A DNA stretch of 64,000 bases from a virus (IMGVR_UViG_3300036792_000267:32001-96000), one strand, 5' to 3'. Positions 4,429 to 59,200 are shown, counted from the stretch's first letter. Made by a program: numbers and translations. The notes: generated by a model not told the origin, from the sequence alone.

Positions 4429-5436
4429 ATGTCCAATGCGGCCGGGGAAGACCGGAGCAGCTTCCAGTCAGTCCAGTCCTGGGGCGGTAACGCGTTCGCG
4501 TTCGCCAAGGCGACTGAGGGAACGTCCTGGTCAGACCCCACGTTCGCGTCCAACTGGGCGAACGCGGCGAACGAGGGCAAGGTACGCGGGGCCTACCACT
4601 TCTTCCACCCGGCTGACAGCGCGGGCGGCCAGGCGCAGTTCTTCATGTCGGTCGTCAAGGCCCATGGCCTACGGGCTGGGGACGTGCTCATCGCGGACGT
4701 GGAGATCTCCGCCGGCGCGGACGGCATGGAGGGCTACGGCACCGAGGGTGCCGCCCGGCGCTCGCACACCGGGCTGAGGGAGCTTCCCCGCGAGTTCACC
4801 GCGGCGGGCGTGGGCTCGGGCGCGCTGGTGTTCCTGAACGCGGTTCAGGCGGCGGCCGGGCCGCAGGTCAAGGTGCTGCTCTACAGCAGCCTGTTCATGG
4901 CGCAGAACCTGCTTATCCCGTGCGCCTCCTACCCGCTGTTCCTGGCCTACTATGCCGGCAGCCCGGCGCAGAGCGTGGCCCCGTGGAGGTCGTGGACTTT
5001 CTGGCAGAACGGGGCCACGGGCGAGGGCGGCGGTGACCTCGACTACTTCAACGGGGACGAGGCGGCGCTGGTTCACTGGGCTAACCCCGCGCCGTCCCCG
5101 CTGCCGCCGAACTGGGCCTACCCGCCGGTGCGGTCCCTGACGGCCTCTGGCGGCCAGACCAGTGTCAAGCTGGAGTGGACCGCGCCCGCGCCGGTGCCCA
5201 ACCAGCAGCCGATGCCCGGCATCGCGGAGTACGAGATCGCTATCGCCAAGGGCACCTCGATCAACGGGCCGGAGGTCGCGTCCTACCCGCGCTACCTGGC
5301 CAAGGGCGCCAACCCCGAGGTGTGGCAGGGCGGCTCGCTGGCGCGTAAGACGCAGTACACCGCCGGGGTGCGCGCTGTCGGTGCGGGCGGCAGCCACGCG
5401 GGCAGCTGGGCCACGGTGACGTTCAGCACGACATGA
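4429..5436 (+). CDS. GH25 muramidase (endolysin) with C-terminal Fn3-like domain
   Basis: KATEG, GAYHFF, DVE catalytic motif, WTFWQ, DLD; beta-rich C-terminus. Confidence 0.85.
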   Translation: MSNAAGEDRSSFQSVQSWGGNAFAFAKATEGTSWSDPTFASNWANAANEGKVRGAYHFFHPADSAGGQAQFFMSVVKAHGLRAGDVLIADVEISAGADGMEGYGTEGAARRSHTGLRELPREFTAAGVGSGALVFLNAVQAAAGPQVKVLLYSSLFMAQNLLIPCASYPLFLAYYAGSPAQSVAPWRSWTFWQNGATGEGGGDLDYFNGDEAALVHWANPAPSPLPPNWAYPPVRSLTASGGQTSVKLEWTAPAPVPNQQPMPGIAEYEIAIAKGTSINGPEVASYPRYLAKGANPEVWQGGSLARKTQYTAGVRAVGAGGSHAGSWATVTFSTT

Positions 5437-5451
5437 GCCGTAGTACGTGGT

Positions 5452-6429
5452 GTGGCCCTCTATCTGTGCGTTAACGACATCCACGCTCGGCGCCGCCCGC
5501 CGAGCAGCTGCACGGATACGTACTGGCCTGACCTGCTGAAGCTGCTCTACCAGACCGTGGATGTCGCCCGCGAGCGCGAGGTGGCCGCAGTCGTGTGGGC
5601 GGGCGACGTGTTCGACTTCAAGGCACCGTCGCGGACTGACCACGGGCTGATGCAGGAGATTATCGGGGTAATCCAGTCTTACCCGTGCCCGGCATGGATC
5701 TTGCCGGGCAATCATGACATCCAGTTCGACAGGCTGGAGTCCATCGAGATGACGCAGCCGCTGGGCGTGCTGTTCAAGGCTGGTGCCCGGCGGCTGGACG
5801 GCTGGCGTGAAGACGCCCCGCTATACGGCGTGCCCTGGCAGCAGGAATGGTCCCAGGGGACTGTCCGGGCTGCGCTAGCGGACTGGTACGAGTACACGCC
5901 GTTTGAGGCCGCCGGGCCACACCAGCTCGTCGTCACTCACGCCCCGATCTACCCGCCCGGTCAGGAGCCGCGTTACGAGGGGGCTGAGTTCACCCCGGCG
6001 TCCTGGTGGGCGGATGCCCTGGGCAACGAGGGCTGCCTGCTTTACGGGCACATCCACGAGCCGCACGGCGTGTGGCGGCACGAGGGCGTGACGTTCTGCA
6101 ACTTCGGCGCGCTCAGCCGGGGCAGCCTGGACGAGTACAACCGTAGCCGCCAGGTCGGGTGCGCGCTGTGGGACAGCGCGACCGGCGAGTTCGAGTTCGT
6201 GCCGCTCGATGCGAGGCCGGCCGAGGAGGTGTTCCGCCTGCGGCAGCACGAGGAGGCCCAGGCCTCGCACCGCCGGCTTGACCTCTTCCTGTCGGGGGTG
6301 GACGCCGCTACCCTCGGCCTGCTGAACGTGGAGTCCGTAATTGCCCACATACGCGAGGGCGGCCATGACGCCCGCGTGGTGAGCCTGGCCGAGGAACTGC
6401 TCATGGCCCAGCAGGGGGGAACGCGTTGA
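5452..6429 (+). CDS. Mre11/SbcD-like metallophosphoesterase nuclease
   Basis: DIH, GDVFD, GNHD, GHIH, NFGAL motifs. Confidence 0.88.
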   Translation: MALYLCVNDIHARRRPPSSCTDTYWPDLLKLLYQTVDVAREREVAAVVWAGDVFDFKAPSRTDHGLMQEIIGVIQSYPCPAWILPGNHDIQFDRLESIEMTQPLGVLFKAGARRLDGWREDAPLYGVPWQQEWSQGTVRAALADWYEYTPFEAAGPHQLVVTHAPIYPPGQEPRYEGAEFTPASWWADALGNEGCLLYGHIHEPHGVWRHEGVTFCNFGALSRGSLDEYNRSRQVGCALWDSATGEFEFVPLDARPAEEVFRLRQHEEAQASHRRLDLFLSGVDAATLGLLNVESVIAHIREGGHDARVVSLAEELLMAQQGGTR

Positions 6430-7165: not shown

Positions 7166-7197
7166 GCGACAACGGGACGCTCCGGCTGAGCTGGTCG
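7162..7197 (+). pseudogene. Orphaned original N-terminus of the exonuclease gene (MSDNGTLRLSWS)
   Basis: Duplicates the DDGALRLSWS segment at 7770-7799 on the far side of the endonuclease gene. Confidence 0.7.
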
Positions 7198-7219
7198 CCG
7201 TGTACCGTACACTCCTGGT

Positions 7220-7792
7220 GTGAAGACTTATGTACCAGGAGTGCCCCGAACTTGCAGTCGCTGCCATAAGTCCGACAGTGAAGTTGAGTTCCCGCCATAC
7301 CGTTCGGCTTACTGCGTTGTTTGCCGACCGCTGGCCAAGCAGGACTGGGCTGTCGGCAGCCGGACGACCATCCGTATTCAGGAGAGTGCTCAGCGGCTGG
7401 CCCGTCATCAGCGCGATCCGGACGGGGAGTGGCGTAAGGAACTGGACAAGCACTTGCGGTCTAAGTTCCATATCACGGTTGACGACTATGACCGGATGTA
7501 TGAAGCTCAGCACGGTCTGTGTGGTATTTGCGGGAAACCAGGTCGCGGGTCTGCCAGATTCGATGGCAGCGAAAGGCGTCTTGCTGTTGACCATGACCGA
7601 CGTTGTTGCCCTGGTGACAAGTCCTGCGGGAAGTGTGTTCGCGGCCTTCTCTGTGGGTCGTGTAACCCTAAGCTCGGTTTTTACGAGCTGTTCGAGAATC
7701 AATGTCAGTCCTGGCGGAACCGCCGTGTTCAAGTGGAGGAGGTGGTGCTAGATGTCCGGAAAGATTGGCGACGACGGAGCCCTGCGGCTTAG
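7220..7792 (+). CDS. Endonuclease VII-family homing endonuclease
   Basis: Q..LCGIC, LAVDHDRRCC, VRGLLCxxCN; lower GC. Confidence 0.85.
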   Translation: MKTYVPGVPRTCSRCHKSDSEVEFPPYRSAYCVVCRPLAKQDWAVGSRTTIRIQESAQRLARHQRDPDGEWRKELDKHLRSKFHITVDDYDRMYEAQHGLCGICGKPGRGSARFDGSERRLAVDHDRRCCPGDKSCGKCVRGLLCGSCNPKLGFYELFENQCQSWRNRRVQVEEVVLDVRKDWRRRSPAA

Positions 7793-8589
7793 TTGGTCCC
7801 GCCTCCGGCTTCATTTAGCATGACGAGTGCCCCGCTAAAGGGGACCTGCTGCGCAAGCACAAGTCGCCGGTGCAGGACGCGCGCAACTACTTTCACGGCA
7901 ACGTGGTTGACCTGGCCATGCGCCGCTGGCTGAGCCAGGAGGACCCGGAGGCCGGGTGGATGGCCGCCCAGGTCGACGCGATCTTCGATGAGTCCATCGG
8001 CATCGCCAGGGACTCTGGTGACGGCATCGTCCGGTGGAAAGGCCCCAACGACAAGAACGAGACCCGCGAGTTCTGCCGCGAGCTGGTGAAGCGGCTGGAG
8101 CCTATCCTGTGCAAGTACGCTATCCCGTTTGAGTGGCAGCCCGCGGAGCGGTTCTCTGTGCCCCTCCGGATCGAGGACCTGAACGGGTCGATGCGCGAGA
8201 TCATCCTCATCGGCGAGATGGACTTGCTGGTGCGTGACCGCGAGGGGCGGTACGCGGTCTGGGACCTGAAGGCGACCAGGGACAACAGCTACTACAAGAA
8301 GGTGCTCGGCCAGCTCGCGTTCTACGCCATCGCCGTGAAGGCGATGAAAGGCCAGTTCCCGGTGATGACGGGACTGATTCAGCCGATGTGCGACCAGCGG
8401 GTGCTCCCGGTCACCGTCGACCATGACGCGGTAGCCCAGATGGCTGGCCGCATTACCAAGGCCGCCCGCGACATCTGGGCCGGCAAGCTCGCCCCAAAAG
8501 CTGACAATGCCGGGTGCGCGTACTGCCCGGTGAAGCACGCCTGCCCCAAGTTCAGCTCCGGCGGCCGGGCAGCCCTGGCTGCGGCGTAG
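7752..8589 (+). CDS. PD-(D/E)xK RecB/Cas4-like exonuclease; needs a 7-nt bypass at 7815-7821
   Basis: Strong SD + ATG 7752; SWS..H-D-E-CP N-terminal motif restored only by hopping CAT TTA G CAT; GEMD, DLK, QLAFY, CAYCPVKHAC. Confidence 0.85.
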
Positions 8590-28027: not shown

Positions 28028-28031
28028 CCCC

Positions 28032-28122
28032 GGAGAGGTAAATCGAGTTGGCCTACCGATCGCGGTCCCGAAAACCGTCAGGGGGTTCGTCCCCCGTGTG
28101 AGTTCGAGTCTCACCCTCTCTG
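28032..28122 (+). tRNA. tRNA-Ser(CGA)
   Basis: Loop CC CGA AA (C33); long variable arm. Confidence 0.82.
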
Positions 28123-29831: not shown

Positions 29832-29905
29832 GGCCGTGTAGCTCAGCAGGCTAGAGCGTTTCCATGACACGGAAGAGGTCCCTGGTTCAAGTCCAGGTAC
29901 GGCCA
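29832..29905 (+). tRNA. tRNA-Val(GAC)
   Basis: Loop AT GAC AC. Confidence 0.88.
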
Positions 29906-29906
29906 C

Positions 29907-35872: not shown

Positions 35873-36214
35873 GTGAGCGAATGGACGACCCGCGGCGAAG
35901 GCGAGTGGGCGGTGCGCGAGGAGCCTGCACCGGAAGAGGAAAGCAGCCCCCAGGCCGGCGCTGGCCCGGAGACTGCTGACATTGACGAGGACGCGGCCCC
36001 TGACGCTGACGGGTTACGAGGCGAAGGCGCGCGGGTCCTGGTTAACGAGCAGCCAGAACGTGGTTTCGCTGGCGGTTACCTCGGCTGGCTTGCTTCCGAT
36101 CCCTGTGCCGTTAGGGCCGCCGCCGTTTGCGAAGGACTTGTCCACTTGCCGTTCTCCTGCCGTAGAAATTTGCACGGTTCGCTGCAACGGAACTTATCCT
36201 GCACAGAACGCTAG
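35873..36214 (+). CDS. Acidic hypothetical protein running into a TTA-rich segment (true end uncertain)
   Basis: CCGATT-N8-GTG; codon usage changes at GGG TTA 36011. Confidence 0.45.
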   Translation: MSEWTTRGEGEWAVREEPAPEEESSPQAGAGPETADIDEDAAPDADGLRGEGARVLVNEQPERGFAGGYLGWLASDPCAVRAAAVCEGLVHLPFSCRRNLHGSLQRNLSCTER

Positions 36215-38762: not shown

Positions 38763-39470
38763 TTAGGCGGCGGCCTCTAGCGCCATCCGGGCCTGGTGCC
38801 GCTCTATGTAGTCGGCTGCAGCCCGTAGCAAGTCGGGGTCGTCGTTGAACATGCCGAGAGCGACGTTGAGGTTCCGGCGGATTAGCCCGCGTAGGCATTT
38901 CCCGCAGCTCCGGTCACCGGGACAGCAACTGCGGTCGTGATCGACGGCGAGGGGGTAAACCTTGCCGGTGCGCTTGCTGACCGAGGTCTCAGGTCGGCCG
39001 CTGATCTCGCAGACGCCGGCCTGCTCAGCTAGTTTTTGGTCGTACCAGCCTGGCGGAAGGCTGTAGACACGATCTCGGTTCTTGGCCCCTTCGCCGTTTG
39101 CGCTGAGGCAGTCCCAGCATTTCCGGCGGTTCTGGTGAGTGGGGTTCACTCTGCAGGTGGCGCAGAGTTTCCCTTGCGCCCGGCAAGCTCCGCACTCGTT
39201 GCGCTCCTTGTCGCCGGGGCTCTTATCTCGCCCGCAGGTAACGCACTTGATTCGGCAGGCCGGGCAACGTTGAGCCTTTGCTCGGTTGTTGCCGCGGTAG
39301 GGCTGGCCGCATGATTCGCAGGGGCGTTCAGCTGTGGCGTATCCGCTGCGCTTACGGACTTTGGCGGCGGCGCACAGGGAGCAGTACGAGCTGAGGGCTC
39401 CTGATGGATAGCGGTGCCGTGGCCGCGTTTTGCAGGTCGGGCAGATGGGTTCGTTTCCGGAGACATTCAC
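38763..39470 (-). CDS. Endonuclease VII-family homing endonuclease with N-terminal Cys repeats
   Basis: LAVDHDRSCCPGDRSCGKCLRGL..N.ALG.F.DDP.LLR.A..Y. Confidence 0.85.
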   Translation of the reverse strand: MNVSGNEPICPTCKTRPRHRYPSGALSSYCSLCAAAKVRKRSGYATAERPCESCGQPYRGNNRAKAQRCPACRIKCVTCGRDKSPGDKERNECGACRAQGKLCATCRVNPTHQNRRKCWDCLSANGEGAKNRDRVYSLPPGWYDQKLAEQAGVCEISGRPETSVSKRTGKVYPLAVDHDRSCCPGDRSCGKCLRGLIRRNLNVALGMFNDDPDLLRAAADYIERHQARMALEAAA

Positions 39471-39637
39471 ATTCTCTACTACGTCTGGCCGACTTACCGA
39501 TTAGACGGGGCAAGCGCTCAGGCGTTAGGCCAGCCAGGTGGCTCCTCTACGAGGGAGCGGCGCAGGCCGGGCTCGGAACTTCGGGTCGCTGTGGAACTTA
39601 ACAGCACCTGCCGGCAATGGTCGGCTGACCGGAGGAG

Positions 39638-40883
39638 GTGAGCCCGATCCCTGACATCAGTCTTTTGGAGCCCGTAGTGCTCCGAGGGGTCGTTTTAAGT
39701 TGAGAAGTTTGTAACGCCAGAAACGTTGCTGCTGCTCAACCGCCTGGACCAGACCCCGTGGCCCTTCCCGTCCGCCACCTGGGACGTGGTGAAGGGATCG
39801 AGAGCGGTCGCCAAGCCGAACGTGCCCAACTCTGAGGCGCACATCATCTCCCGGCTCGGCAGGAGCCAGGAAAGCGCGAGCTTCATCTACTTGCGCGAGA
39901 AGAAGGTCTTTGAGCCGACCACGCTGCACTGGCTGCGGACGCCGGGCGAGATCGCCCGCATCAACGCCGAGCGCGCGGTGCTGAGGGAGATCAACGACCT
40001 CAACCAGCGGTTCGACAACTTCGCCGAGTGGAGCGCCTGGCAAGCGCTGGGCGGCGCGATCCAGTACAACTACGGCGACGTCCAGGCCCTGGTGGACTAC
40101 AAGTTCCCGCGCAGCCACTTCGTCACCCCGGCCACGCCGTGGGTCACTAACACCGCGCTCGGCTACTACACCACCGGCGGCGCCACCGCGGCCGGCGCGG
40201 GAACCAACAGCGGCCAGCCGGGCCAGCCGACCACCCTGGGCCAGGCCCAGACCTCGCTGACCGCGGCCGGCGGCACCATCACCTACGCGACCCCGGTGTC
40301 GATCATCGAAGACGTGCGGTCGTGGAAGCGGCTGCTGGCCGTGCACGGCCGGGTGCCGGCGAAGGAAGTTTTCGCCACCAGCGTCACCATGGCCGGCCTG
40401 ATGGAAGCGTGGGTGTCCGCCACGCAGGCGTCTACCGTGTCGATCCCGGCGACCATGATGAGCGACCGGATGAAGGACGAATTTTACTCGACCGGCATCA
40501 TGACCGGCTTCATGGGCCTCGTCTGGACCACGGTGGAGCAGGTCTTCGAGTCCGACCTCGGCAACCTGACCTTCTTCGTGCCGGATGGCATGATCTACCT
40601 GGGCAACTACACCGACCAGCGGCCAGTGGAGGTCCTGGTCGGCCCGACTGCCGACGACGAGGCCCCCGAAGGTTTTACCGGAAAATATGCCAAGACCTGG
40701 AAGGAGAAGGACCCGTCCGCTCGTCAGTACCTGTTGGAGTGGCACATGCTCCCGATCATCACCAGGCCTGAGCAGATGCTGGTAGCCACCAACGTCATCT
40801 CTGCGGGCGGCAGCGTCACCGTCCCGGCCGGCTACTACAACGGCGGGGCCGGCACTGGCGGAAGCAACGCGCCGGTCGACTAG
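39638..40883 (+). CDS. Major capsid protein; needs a 7-nt bypass at 39695-39701; start GTG 39638 or ATC 39647
   Basis: Lambda E-like pattern, follows decoration gene; N-terminal PDISLLEPVVLRGVV joins EKFVTPETL only by hopping GTT TTA A GTT. Confidence 0.85.
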
Positions 40884-49069: not shown

Positions 49070-49315
49070 TTGGGCGGGATGCGGTTCATGCCCGCGGGAG
49101 TGCACCGCGAGCGGCAGGGCGATGACTGGTACGTCATCTGGCTGGGCCCGGCCCGCGCCGAGGGCAGCATCGTCATCGGCCGGACTAAGCGGCTGAGACG
49201 GCACCTGTGGCACCGCTGCTTCCCTGAGTCAGGTGCCGCCTGCCGGGAAGTGAAAGGGCACGTAGCCGGCATCGAGTGGCTGCTGGAGGTGCACAGGCAG
49301 TCCGATTAGGCGGGC

Positions 49316-49906
49316 GTGCACTACCGAGCCGTGCCCGGCTGGCCAGCGCCCATTGTGGTAGCCCGGCCACGGCCAGGGGACTTCTGCTGCGTCCCCGTCA
49401 GCGGCCCGGTGGGCCTCGGCATCACCGTCGGCCAGTGGCTGGACGGCGACGCGTTCCAGTTCTACGACCACACCGAGATCTACATCGGCAAGGCGGATGC
49501 CGCCGGGCCCTACGGTTACACGGTCAGCGCCTACCCGGACGGCCACGGCAAGCGGCCCCTGCCCTGCCCGTCGTGGCAGCTGCCCGGCTCGCTGTGGTCA
49601 TCCGGGCTGGTCGACCTGACCGGCGCGCAGCGGACCGGCATCACCGCCTGGGCGATGGCGCACCAGGACACCACCTACTCGTTCCTGGACTACGGCGCGC
49701 TGGCGCTGCACGCGCTGCACGTCCCGGCCCCTGGCCTGCGCGAGTTCATAAAAAGCACCGGGCACATGATTTGCGGCCAGTGGACGGACGCGGGCTACCG
49801 CTTTGGCGGCGAGGTGCAGCTTTTCGATGACAAGCGCTGGGAGGGCTACGTCAAGCCAGGCGATTTGGCCAAGCTCCTGCAAGCCCGGCTCGTCCAGGCG
49901 GCTTAG
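49316..49906 (+). CDS. Permuted papain-like (YaeF/NlpC-P60) amidase
   Basis: PGD, H..IYIG, Y...MICGQ, KPGDL. Confidence 0.7.
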   Translation: MHYRAVPGWPAPIVVARPRPGDFCCVPVSGPVGLGITVGQWLDGDAFQFYDHTEIYIGKADAAGPYGYTVSAYPDGHGKRPLPCPSWQLPGSLWSSGLVDLTGAQRTGITAWAMAHQDTTYSFLDYGALALHALHVPAPGLREFIKSTGHMICGQWTDAGYRFGGEVQLFDDKRWEGYVKPGDLAKLLQARLVQAA

Positions 49907-49986
49907 CGGTTTCCCCTGCGGCCTCCGTGATCTTGGTGTTACCGTCGCGGAACCCGCACCTGACGCCAGCATGCCCGGGAGATGCC

Positions 49987-50535
49987 ATGTACGCACTGCC
50001 CCCCGCCACCGTTACCGTGCACCCCGGCGACACGCTGTCAGCCATCGCCGGCCGCGCCTGCGGCGACCCGGCCGACTACCTCGCCCTGGCCTACAACAAC
50101 GACGTGGCCAACCCTGACCTCATCTACGCCGGGCAGGTTTTCCAGGTGGCCTGCCAGGCCGCCGCCCAGGCCATCGCCGACCGCTATAACCTGCTCGGCA
50201 GTGCCCCGCAGCCTGTCCACTACGCGTCGCAGCCCAGCCAGGCACCGCAGCAGCCCGTGTCCCAGCCTGTGGTGACCTCGGTGTCCGGCACCATCGGCTC
50301 CAGCTCGATGCAGTCGTGCATCATCGCCCGCGAGTCCGGCGGCAACGCGCAGGCCGTGAACCCGTCTTCTGGCGCCGGGGGCCTCTACCAGTTCCTGCCG
50401 TCCACCTGGCAGGCTCTCGGGCACAGCGGCCTGCCCGAGAATGCTTCTGTCGCCGAGCAGAACCAGGCGTACGCGCAGGAGGTCGCGCAGGACGGCTACA
50501 GCGCGTGGACCGCGTACGACGGATGCACCCCTTGA
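49987..50535 (+). CDS. LysM + Rpf-like lytic transglycosylase
   Basis: VHPGDTLSAIA..NPDLIYAGQ; CIIARESGGN..GGLYQFLPSTW..A...EQ. Confidence 0.85.
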   Translation: MYALPPATVTVHPGDTLSAIAGRACGDPADYLALAYNNDVANPDLIYAGQVFQVACQAAAQAIADRYNLLGSAPQPVHYASQPSQAPQQPVSQPVVTSVSGTIGSSSMQSCIIARESGGNAQAVNPSSGAGGLYQFLPSTWQALGHSGLPENASVAEQNQAYAQEVAQDGYSAWTAYDGCTP

Positions 50536-55506: not shown

Positions 55507-55528
55507 GGGCGTGGGCGTAGTAGTCAGC

Positions 55529-56230
55529 ATGGTACGTAATTCATCAATGCTGTCCGACGAGTCTTGGCTGCGCGAGCGCTACCTCGTTGACGAACTGTCC
55601 ACCACCGCCATTGCGGCGCTGGCCAACTGCTCTCAGGCCACGGTGTGCAACCGGCTGGCCGGGTACGGAATCCCGCGGCGTCCCCGAGGTCGCTTTACGC
55701 AGAGCCGGATCGACGCTGACGGCCGAGAGTGCACGGCTTGCGGTGACTACAAAGCGTGGAACGAGTACTCGCCTAGCAAGCCGACGCAGCCAGGCGGCCG
55801 GTACTCCGTCTGCAAGGTCTGCTGGAACGGCACGCGCGGTGGCGGCCCCGGTAACCGGAATGGCGAGTACCGTGCGTGGGCACTCAAGCGCATGGGCATC
55901 ACGCAAGCCGAGTACGACTGGCTGCTAGCCCTGCAGAAGGGCGTGTGCGCTCTCCATGGTGGCCCGGAGACTAGGAAGGGTGCGCTGTACCTTTCCGTCG
56001 ACCACGACCACAACTGCTGTCCGCCGGTAAAGGTCGGGCAGACCCGGTGCTGCAAGAAGTGCATCCGCGGCCTGCTCTGCCACGACTGCAACCACATGGT
56101 CGGCCTAGCTGAGAAGCTAGGTCAGGCGTGGCGGTTCCCTGATTACCTGGGCTCGCGCCCCTTCATGGGGAAGGGGGTGGTGCTCATGACGCCTTATTCT
56201 GAGCCTCTGAGCCACAGTTGTGGCTTATGA
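55529..56230 (+). CDS. Endonuclease VII-family homing endonuclease with N-terminal HTH
   Basis: WLRERY..LST..IA, LSVDHDHNCC, IRGLLCHDCN. Confidence 0.85.
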   Translation: MVRNSSMLSDESWLRERYLVDELSTTAIAALANCSQATVCNRLAGYGIPRRPRGRFTQSRIDADGRECTACGDYKAWNEYSPSKPTQPGGRYSVCKVCWNGTRGGGPGNRNGEYRAWALKRMGITQAEYDWLLALQKGVCALHGGPETRKGALYLSVDHDHNCCPPVKVGQTRCCKKCIRGLLCHDCNHMVGLAEKLGQAWRFPDYLGSRPFMGKGVVLMTPYSEPLSHSCGL

Positions 56231-59200
56231 GGGACCAGAATACTGGTTAGATCGCTTTGGTATGTAATTTACAAGGCGATCGGTTTAACATTCAGGTGAC
56301 TTCGGCGACCTGATGCGGGACGCGGCGCAGGCTAAGGCCGCGCTGCAGGGGATGGGCGATGCGGCCAAGGCGGAGACCGCGGCCGAGGTGGCGGGCGCGA
56401 CCCAGGCCGCCGCCGCGCGCGGCAAGGGCATCACGTCCATCCAGCAGGAGACGCAGGCCCTTAACCAGCTCGCCAACGCCGCCAAGCAGACCAACGTCCA
56501 GCTGCTCTACGGCGGCCGGAATGACATGACCCAGCACCTGAGCGACCTGGCTCAGGAGCTGAACTACACCACCTTGCTCAACCGGCAGAAGTGGCTCGGC
56601 TTCTCCTCCGTCCAGCAGGCCATGTCGTACCGCCAGCAGATGTATAACCTGGCGCTGCTGGAGAACAAAGCGCACTTCGCCGGCTACCTGACCGCGGACC
56701 AGTACCTGGGCTTCCTGCAGCGCGAGACCGCCCAGACCGCGGCGCTGTCGGCCGCCATCCGCGACCGCAGCGCGGCCATCGGCGCCGAGACCCAGATGCT
56801 GCTCGCGCACGCCAACGCGCTGCAGGGCACCCACGCGACGGCAGGCAGCCTGGGCGAGGGCCTGAGCACGGTCAACGCCTACAACGTGGCGCTGGTCGGG
56901 CTGCCGGACACGGTGGTCACCAAGGCCGTCCTTGATGACAGCCAGGCGATGTCGCAGCTGGCTGCCTACCGCGCGGCGCTGACCTCGCTTCCCAACGCGG
57001 AGACCACCGACATCACCTCGGTTGCCACCCGGCTGGGCGGCGTCCCGCTGACGGGCGCGCGCCAGGCGGTGCCGGTCAGCGTCCGCCCCGAGATCGACTA
57101 CGCCGCGATCAACAAGATGCTGTCCCAGGCGGTCGCCGGGGCGCACCCGGAGGCGCTGCGCGCGCCGCTGGCCATCACCGGGTCGGGAGCGGCGGATTCC
57201 GCGCTGTCGGCCACGGCGGATTCCGCGCTGTCGGCCACGGCGGACGACGCCGGCGCGCTGTCGGCGTCCATGTCCGAGCTGAGCGACAAGGCGGCCATTT
57301 CCGCCGAGGCAATCAGCAAGTTCCAGGACTCCCTCGCGCTGGCCGCGGTCGACGCCCGCGCGCTGGAGCAGGGACTCGGGCGCCTGTCGGCCGCCGAGCA
57401 GCTGCTGTCTGAGGTTAACGCCCAGTTCGTGCCGCAGAAAGGCCGCAAGAAGGCGGCGGCTGCCGACCCGGCGCAGAACCTCGCTGACCTGTACGGGCTG
57501 CAGGACGTCGCCGGCGCGCTGCGCGAGGGCGCGATCTCCGACGCGCCGCGCGGCTACCCGCTGTCCGCCCCGGGCATGAAGATCATCCCGCCGACGCAGG
57601 CGGGAGAAGAAGACCTGTGGTCGGGGCTGTCCAAGTACATGCAGGGCGGCAAGGCCGCGGGGACTGCCACCGAGAAGGTTGCCGTCGAGGGCGGCCAGGA
57701 GGCCGAGGCGACCCTCGACAAGATCGCCGTCCAGATGGAGTGGCTGGACCATGAGGATGCCAAGCCGAAGCTAGAGCTGGAAGGCGGCCAGGAGGCGCTA
57801 GACGACGCCTACCACCTGGACGGCGTACTCGTCGGCCTGACTTACGAGCGCGCGGAGCCGGAAGTCGCCCTGCAAGGCGGAGCCGAGGCGCTGGGAGAAG
57901 TCACCGCCCTGGACGAGGGGCTGCACGAGATCCCGCACGAGACTGACACCGTCCTGGTGGTCGAGTCCTCCGGGGCCTCCAGCGAGGTCCGCGATTACAG
58001 CCGCGACATTGAGGACATCGAGCGTGAGGTGGGCACTCGCGCCGACTTCGAGGACACCGAGGCGGAGAGCGGGCTGTCGCGCTGGCTGACCGCCCTGGCT
58101 GCGGCGGTCCAGCACAAGTACGACTTCTACGCCAGCTTCAACGACGACGCGGCCAAGGCCGAGCTGGCCGGGTGGATCAGCGAGCTTGAGGCGGCACGCG
58201 CCGAGGAGAACCGCATCACCGCCGGCATGGGCGGTGCCTCCGGTGGCGGTGGCGGCGGAGGGCCGCCTGTTCCCCCTGCTGCCGCCGGCGACGCGCCCAA
58301 CCCGGATGACCGGGCGATGTGGGAGGCCGTCGCCGCCGAGATGGCCAAGGTAGACGCCCTCTTCAAGAACACCGGCCGTGACGCCGCTGCCGCCGGGGCC
58401 GCCGCGTCCAAGGCCGGCCGGGACGGCGCGCAGGCGGTCACCTCGATGGTGCTGCCGCTGACCAACGGCGCGCGCGGCTGGTTCGGCCTGCTCACCCAGG
58501 TCAACCTGTTCGGCGGCCTGCTGCCCGGCATCCTGGGCCACACCACGGCCCTGCACTTCGTCCTTGACGCGATCATCGAGACGATCGCCATCCTGCTGCC
58601 GGCCATCGTCACCATGGCAGCCGGGCTGACCGCGTTCGGCATCGCTGGCTACGACGCCGGCAAGGCGGTCTACGAGCGCCTGACGGCGATTCACACCGCG
58701 GCCGACGCCACCGGCCAGTCCATCCCGCCGCTGACCGGGAACCTGGAGAAGCTGCACGACACGGTGCGCCCGCAGGTCTGGCAGTTGTATGGCGACGCCA
58801 TCACCGTCGCGGGGGCGAAGTCCGGGCTCTTCAACCAGCTGGCCATCCAGACCGGGAACGTGGTCGACCGGCTGGCCGCGCGGCTGACGGTGGACCTGGT
58901 GCAGGGTGGCCAGGGGCTGAAGACGTTCCTGTCGGTCGGCGCGGAGAACCTGGCCAAGCTCGGCACCATCTTCGACAACCTCGGCAAGGCCCTGATGGCG
59001 TTCATCAAGGTCACCGAGGACACCCACATTGACCAGATTTTCCTGGCCATCTTCGTGGCGCTGTCCCAGTTCCTGGTGCTCATCACCAAGCTGCCCACCC
59101 CGTTGCTCGCCGCCGTGGTCGCGCTGCACGCGTTCTGGCTGTGGGGCGGCCTGCTGGCCACCGTGGTCCTGCAGATGCTCAACCCGCTGCGCTCGCTGGC

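Follow-up and report, generated by a model that had tools for sequence, protein, structure and literature searches.

The interrupted capsid gene

The DNA analyzed here is a stretch of 64,000 nucleotides (hereafter the window, whose numbering is used throughout) from a virus whose genome record is complete (151,377 nt, with direct terminal repeats, rated 100% complete) and is not that of a decaying prophage. The gene for the major capsid protein follows, in the head module, the genes for a Mu-like protease/scaffold and a gpD-like decoration protein, and is divided between two frames. The first part (39647..39694, plus strand) codes for the conserved N-terminus of the protein down to RGVV, the last codon being GTT 39692–39694. 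It is preceded by the ribosome-binding site GGAGGAGGTG (39631..39640, plus strand), and sites of the GGAGGTGA type are found at the equivalent position in the relatives. The start codon is probably ATC 39647, located 8 nt after GGAGG, with GTG 39638 as the alternative. Among the relatives the start, directly before a Pro codon, can be ATG, GTG, TTG, ATT or ATC. So many non-canonical starts are unusual in a gene with high expression (compare 39638–39649 in the window). From either GTG 39638 or ATC 39647 a short frame of 16–19 codons reads ..PDISLLEPVVLRGVV and continues with TTA 39695, AGT 39698 and the zero-frame stop TGA (39701..39703, plus strand), where normal decoding of the TTA leads to the end of a peptide of only 19–21 residues.

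The second part (39702..40883, plus strand, 393 codons and a stop) codes for the body of a lambda gpE-type major capsid protein (PF03864, E 9.6e-23, 81.2 bits vs. a cut-off of 22.9). In this +1 frame TAA 39696 is a stop, and from GTT 39699 onwards there is no other until the one at 40881–40883. Its first standard start is TTG 39726, which is where gene callers begin the capsid protein (P0001), and there is no purine-rich ribosome-binding site before it. The seven putatively bypassed bases (39695..39701, plus strand) comprise the hungry codon TTA 39695–39697, an A at 39698 and a second GTT, the landing codon, at 39699–39701. An earlier note on this DNA had claimed a very strong Shine-Dalgarno (SD) site, a frame ending GTT-TTA-AGT-TGA with the capsid body in the +1 frame, and a TTG 39726 devoid of an SD. 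We found GGAGGAGGTG by direct reading, could follow both frames letter for letter, and detected nothing purine-rich ahead of the TTG. The note had also proposed to join GTT 39692 to GTT 39699. The joined product would have 409 aa and read RGVV-EKF, the sequence that ~95% of the relatives read uninterrupted.

Homologues and metagenomic contigs

A search of 5.8 billion proteins retrieved 773 capsid relatives. About 100 of the best 120 of them carry Met/Val-PDISLLEP.VLRGVVEKF..TPE.. at their N-terminus, with no break, and the RGVVEKF stretch is nearly invariant across the capsid family. A start at LLLNRL, which the earlier note had considered as the opposite outcome, was not seen in the alignment, and nearly all homologues were continuous through VV-EK. 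We also compared the DNA of 165 related loci between an N-terminal anchor and an anchor in the capsid body. The distance was 117 nt in 97 loci, 124 in three and 127 in four; by a more tolerant measure, 147 of 155 loci were contiguous, three had 7 additional bases and four had 10. Since the homologues are contiguous at RGVV-EKF, the window contains exactly seven extra bases.

Metagenome contigs spanning 39400–39796 and 39605–39756 were recovered; they come from the likely source run, at a depth of ~150, and from two further studies of soil. They were identical to the window, with no indel at 39692–39701. As three runs of as many studies agree in this, an assembly error can be discarded as the origin of the insert. 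One contig from a peat RNA library (X24) retains a 7-nt insert. This argues against removal at the RNA level, albeit as a weak hint, because DNA carry-over is possible.

A series of interrupted capsid alleles

By examining homologues with short called N-termini, we collected 11 distinct interrupted capsid alleles (10 besides that of the window), together with the peat RNA-library contig. Written from the last common codon through the codon preceding resumed decoding, the window has GTT-TTA-A-GTT, L089 and L078 have GTT-TTA-G-GTC, and L170 and the RNA-library contig GTT-TTA-G-GCC. The longer inserts are GTT-TTA-G-CGG-GTC (L002), GTT-TTA-G-CGG-GTT (L171), GTT-TTA-C-CGG-GTT (L137), GTT-TTA-A-CGG-GTC (L172, one codon more upstream), GGT-TTA-A-CCC-CGC (L090) and GGT-TTA-C-CCC-CGC (L167), the last two located two codons upstream. 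All inserts are therefore 7 or 10 nt long, lie within two codons of one another and begin with TTA. The codon before the TTA ends in T in every allele (as a reference, GTT makes up 260 of the 2,989 Val codons of the genome, 8.7%). In 7 of the 11 alleles the landing codon is GTT or GTC, cognate for the tRNA of the take-off codon, and in the other four the landing matches the take-off at two of the three positions (GTT to GCC in L170 and the RNA-library contig, GGT to CGC in L090 and L167).

All the interrupted capsid bodies that could be read to their end were intact (367–395 aa). The codons flanking the gap varied at many synonymous sites, with the N-terminal peptide preserved. On the capsid tree the interrupted state amounts to nine changes, at least seven of them forced by well-supported branches, and its clustering was no greater than with shuffled labels. 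The presence of TTA, the intact bodies, the preserved peptide and the scattered recurrence over the tree make a random lethal mutation unlikely.

No RNA structure common to the interrupted alleles was found when we looked for one. In the window, a hairpin at 39645–39691 ends just before the take-off codon, with a fold z-score of only −1.75, and an SD-like GAGGGG lies 2 nt upstream of the take-off and derives from the conserved Arg-Gly codons. In two alleles only, L090 (225–260) and L167 (1195–1230), a small GGGG/CCCC hairpin has the TTA in its loop, reminiscent of the stem-loop at take-off in T4 gene 60. Two further observations concern the alleles themselves. The 7-letter gap TTAACGG is identical in L172 (3476–3490) and in the second site of the phiHau3 terminase (L175, 2921–2935), and TTA-N-CGG occurs in three capsid alleles besides L172. 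Locus L127 (3363–3512) has a different capsid N-terminus (MTWP..), encoded by a short ORF that ends in TGA and is out of frame with the body; this may be another kind of interruption, one without TTA.

Further TTA-led gaps in the genome

A scan for the pattern codon-TTA-gap-same codon yielded a site in a nuclease gene and the second of two gaps in a tape-measure-like gene. A genome-wide scan by codon-usage score for in-frame TTA at frame switches gave nothing usable, short windows being too noisy. The first of these genes (7752..8589, plus strand, start ATG 7752) codes for a PD-(D/E)XK nuclease (PF12705) and has its gap at 7812–7821: take-off CAT 7812, TTA 7815, a G, landing CAT 7819 and resumption at GAC 7822, a 7-nt step. 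Dozens of nuclease homologues read ..SRLR.H-DECPAKG.. uninterrupted, and the joined product of the window would read ..SRLRLH-DECPAKG...

The second is a giant tape-measure-like gene that starts at GTG 56220 and has two gaps at its 5′ end (56220..56300, plus strand), both within the first 25 codons. After ..GPEYW, TGG 56244 is followed by an 11-nt TTA-led gap and by TGG 56258 (a 14-nt step), after which the sequence continues YVIYKAIG; GGT 56282 is then followed by a 10-nt TTA-led gap and by GGT 56295 (a 13-nt step), leading to DFGDLMRDAA... The whole N-terminus ..GPEYW-YVIYKAIG-DFGDLMRDAA.. is continuous in 18 of 46 homologues. Another 26 of the 46 had been called from an internal Met, so many of them may carry unrecognized gaps. 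Among the relatives of this gene we found gaps from GGT to GGT over 10 nt, from TGG to TGG over 13 and from GGT to GGC over 13. Thus the window contains four sites in three genes, all with identical take-off and landing codons, and with steps of 7, 7, 14 and 13 nt; at the three sites outside the capsid gene the joined products also match contiguous homologues.

The ORFs at 49310–50535, which we had considered as a tape measure, turned out to be a transglycosylase and other genes, with no gap. A region of 200 nt with five TTA triplets (36011–36209), flanked by a small acidic ORF and by the small gene that follows, was read in the three frames and no single frame gave a convincing protein. It could contain further gaps or be a structured intergenic region.

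Rarity of TTA and the tRNA complement

No sense codon of the phage is rarer than TTA, which occurs 14 times in 39,089 codons (0.36 per 1000) in a crude ORF set, and several of these 14 are in doubtful ORFs. The phage carries a cluster of 38 tRNA genes that covers all the amino acids and from which tRNA-Leu(UAA) is absent. The decoding of UUA thus falls to the host. We searched the gaps of the cluster for a tRNA-Leu(UAA) or a tRNA with an 8-nt anticodon loop and found neither. The only extra gene was a tRNA-Ser(CGA) (28031–28122) that has C for U at position 33, had been missed by ARAGORN and was weakly matched by the tRNA-Sec model. Among the 38 is a tRNA-Val(GAC) (29832..29906, plus strand), which reads both GUU and GUC.

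Endonuclease VII genes next to the interrupted genes

Immediately upstream of the capsid gene, and diverging from it, is a gene of the Endonuclease VII family (38763..39470, minus strand, 235 aa, PF02945). A second one (7190..7792, plus strand, as a stop-to-stop frame, PF02945) lies directly upstream of the interrupted nuclease gene, and a third (55511..56230, plus strand, PF02945) directly upstream of the tape-measure-like gene. The genome contains exactly these three PF02945 genes, each being the neighbor of a different interrupted gene, at the end of it that has the gap.

The association was also found in the relatives. The lineage of the capsid-side nuclease (75–85% identity over the catalytic part) was present upstream of six of nine interrupted capsid genes, counting the loci with enough flanking DNA, and of none of 90 uninterrupted ones (Fisher's exact test, p = 7e-8). 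At the uninterrupted loci the nucleases, where present, were at most 56% identical to this lineage. Three of the six capsid-side copies were full length and three were fragments of 79–86 aa. Some copies have thus been truncated or lost with the gap retained. As a point against the pairing, three interrupted capsid loci have no such nuclease. In the same way, the upstream Endonuclease VII gene was absent from five relatives with an uninterrupted PD-(D/E)XK nuclease gene, and for the tape measure two doubly interrupted relatives have the third nuclease or a remnant of it and two uninterrupted relatives lack it. One locus, L170, has a different Endonuclease VII gene (4652–5533, 293 aa) that lies directly downstream of the capsid gene and not upstream.

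The capsid bodies of L137 and L138 are identical in protein sequence, and a module of ~500 nt, consisting of the intergenic region and the first ~27 capsid codons, gap included, has been swapped between them. Sliding-window identity among the interrupted alleles (background ~80%) was otherwise mostly uninformative, with clean edges only in this pair.

The gene at 38763..39470 is thus a candidate for the homing endonuclease of a cassette, and we consider it rather likely, judging from its distribution among the loci, that the insert forms part of a mobile cassette together with this neighboring gene. By analogy with T4 mobA/gene 60, the insert may protect its own capsid gene from the nuclease. 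A wider proposal, for and against which we see the case as evenly balanced, is that the TTA-led gaps are self-immunity scars of Endonuclease VII homing elements. These elements would be spreading among large soil actinophages and inserting beside highly conserved gene starts (capsid, tape measure, nuclease), and the gaps would be kept because ribosomes short of UUA-reading tRNA hop efficiently enough for virions to be made. If this were true, the bypasses of the phiHau3 type and of the T4 gene 60 type would come under one evolutionary logic, and dozens of natural alleles would be available for dissecting the rules of short hops.

Proposed mechanism

The capsid protein is, with good probability, made by a short programmed translational bypass, a hop of 7 nt from GTT 39692 to GTT 39699. 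Translation would initiate at ATC 39647 or GTG 39638 and proceed until GUU 39692 reaches the P site. The UUA would then enter an A site that remains empty, because it is the rarest codon of the phage and is read by none of its 38 tRNAs. The peptidyl-tRNA-Val would release GUU, the mRNA would slide by 7 nt and the tRNA would re-pair at GUU 39699. Decoding would restart at GAG 39702 to give the 409-aa protein, colinear with the uninterrupted homologues, and any ribosome that did decode the UUA would terminate two codons further on. Three features of a short bypass triggered by UUA are present in the DNA: TTA 39695 comes directly after the second Val of RGVV, the 7-nt block is missing from the uninterrupted homologues, and take-off and landing GTT are read by one tRNA. 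Against the hop, a major capsid protein needs high output and known short hops are inefficient. The matched triplets at both sides of the gap could also be a by-product of the origin of the insert, for example by short duplications.

Alternative explanations

One alternative concerns the purpose of the gap rather than its decoding, and can be compatible with the hop. The bypass would take place only while the host lacks charged tRNA-Leu(UAA), allowing virion genes to sense the growth stage, a model put forward for the Streptomyces phage phiHau3 by Smith et al. and Antonov et al. (PMC10732093). In favor of this, UUA is the trigger in every allele, and a phage that supplies 38 tRNAs provides none for it. 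Against this, close relatives manage without the gap, the gap follows the nuclease gene and not the phylogeny, and further anticodons are also absent from the phage tRNA set. We regard the regulatory purpose as doubtful.

A second alternative is that the frame changes by a +1-type event, on the UUA or immediately afterwards. The ribosome would either read four bases, UUA-N, as one codon or slip at the codon that follows, ahead of UGA or CGA, and would translate the rest of the insert, so that the capsid would gain two or three residues (in the window Leu-Ser, placed between VV and EK). In its favor, the capsid alleles show free variation at the fourth base, and the bases after it behave like GC-rich triplets (GTT, GTC, GCC, CGG-GTY, CCC-CGC). 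All the capsid inserts are 3n+1, and such a shift would fit the four mismatched landings better than a hop. The mismatched landings and triplet-like bases mean, therefore, that a +1-type event may operate in those alleles. In the window, however, the +1 frame is blocked by TAA 39696. The shift would be confined to AGT-TGA, where tRNA-Ser cannot re-pair, and there is no slip site common to the alleles. The 14-nt step at the first tape-measure gap is 3n+2 and shifts the frame by +2, which excludes a +1 frameshift there. Two more facts count against it: the near invariance of the RGVVEKF stretch, into which residues would be added, and the case of phiHau3, for which bypassing was demonstrated by the junction peptide, and recoding increased when the gap was given a +1 stop (PMC10732093). 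Altogether we consider a +1 shift improbable.

It is also very unlikely that the gene is simply broken, i.e., that this copy is not expressed (a defective phage), or that a truncated capsid is made from TTG 39726 with the upstream peptide separate or useless. By standard rules the gene is indeed frameshifted, and gene callers do choose that TTG. However, the TTG lacks a ribosome-binding site, and the genome is complete, abundant and has terminal repeats. Among the genes that were read, none was noticed that could be another capsid gene. The N-terminus of 16 residues is conserved under synonymous change in the interrupted alleles, and eleven alleles all keep the TTA, a frame-restoring length and intact bodies. 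The four sites of the genome are, besides, all in well-conserved genes, two of which are virion genes. Lastly, a sequencing or assembly artefact or a minority variant is practically inconceivable, given the identical contigs without indel from three runs of three studies and the related alleles in many other assemblies, and we found no evidence in its favor.

Significance

The short hop thus remains our preferred reading, and the comparison of sequences supports that the capsid gap belongs to UUA-triggered short bypassing, a known but very sparsely documented form of recoding that so far comprised three terminase genes (four sites) and limited experiments. New here are the gene, a major capsid, the set of natural alleles and the regular presence of an Endonuclease VII gene beside the interrupted genes. 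The capsid case would imply that a short hop can work well enough to supply the protein for assembling capsids. The alleles make up a natural series with gaps of 7 and 10 nt, three insertion points and both perfect and imperfect landings that, together with the three additional sites (7, 13 and 14 nt), amounts to ready-made constructs for working out the rules of take-off and landing. The pairing with Endonuclease VII suggests a reason for the existence of such gaps. Finally, since gene callers truncate gapped proteins (as in the 26 of 46 tape-measure homologues), annotation pipelines miss them systematically.

Comparison with known recoding systems

In 2013, bypassing mediated by UUA was put forward for the phiHau3 large terminase gene, where there are two 10-nt gaps, and also for a prophage whose gap is 7 nt long (Smith et al. 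2013, J Bacteriol 195:4924). Antonov et al. (2023) added a third gene and detected the full-length product in Streptomyces (PMC10732093), the cases being the terminase of Streptomyces phage phiHau3 and those of the StrepC.1 and S. catenulae prophages. In E. coli, with the UUA changed to UAA, a junction peptide seen by mass spectrometry proved bypassing and not frameshifting (PMC10732093). The phiHau3 terminase DNA reads GGC-[TTACTCC]-GGT and TCT-[TTAACGG]-TCC. Like these sites, the capsid gene has an in-frame rare UUA after the last colinear codon, a gap of 7 or 10 nt, and take-off and landing codons cognate for one tRNA, in the same setting of a high-GC actinophage and with the junction in a conserved part of an essential protein. 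It differs in being a major capsid gene, whose product is needed in hundreds of copies, and in belonging to a group of uncultured phages of ~150 kb with 38 tRNAs. There are also many natural alleles here, some with imperfect landing codons, and four sites in three genes with steps of up to 14 nt. A search of the text of PMC10732093 found no homing, no capsid genes and only an unrelated endonuclease, and a full-text literature search gave nothing linking UUA bypass with capsid genes or homing endonucleases.

The +1 frameshift of prfB (release factor 2) shares with the capsid gene a slowly decoded A-site codon and, 2–3 nt ahead of the codon where the shift occurs, a G-rich SD-like stretch. In contrast, the +1 codon after GTT-T is here TAA 39696 and the new frame is not open; a +1 slip from GUU meets UAA at once, so that 7 nt must be skipped. 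The byp elements that Lang et al. reportedly described in 2014 in the mitochondria of Magnusiomyces capitatus are said to be structured inserts of 27–55 nt. They resemble the present gaps in being numerous, short and mobile, in interrupting essential genes and in being passed over by the ribosome; their take-off and landing codons also match, and the A-site codon is one that is poorly decoded. They differ in being mitochondrial, structured and with no nuclease partner described.

The 50-nt bypass of T4 gene 60 is carried by a MobA homing-endonuclease element (bioRxiv 10.1101/2022.08.31.505936, citing Bonocora et al. 2011). In that element the gap is described as making the carrier immune to the nuclease that it encodes, and as persisting after the nuclease gene is gone (bioRxiv 10.1101/2022.08.31.505936). 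The same arrangement is seen in the window and its relatives: a coding gap in an essential gene beside a free-standing nuclease of homing type, present or absent among close relatives, with the nuclease often truncated or lost and the gap retained. In some clades of the gene 60 type a hungry sense codon even replaces the stop, as here. On the other hand, the capsid gap is of 7 nt, has a sense codon at the A site and involves neither a take-off stem-loop nor a split gene. Its N-terminal peptide is the one proper to the capsid family and not an element-specific nascent peptide. The nuclease is also different (PF02945 and not the HNH MobA), and the gene 60 cassette is not homologous to the present one. 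The capsid gap would work like the T4 gene 60 cassette, but it is not a member of that class.
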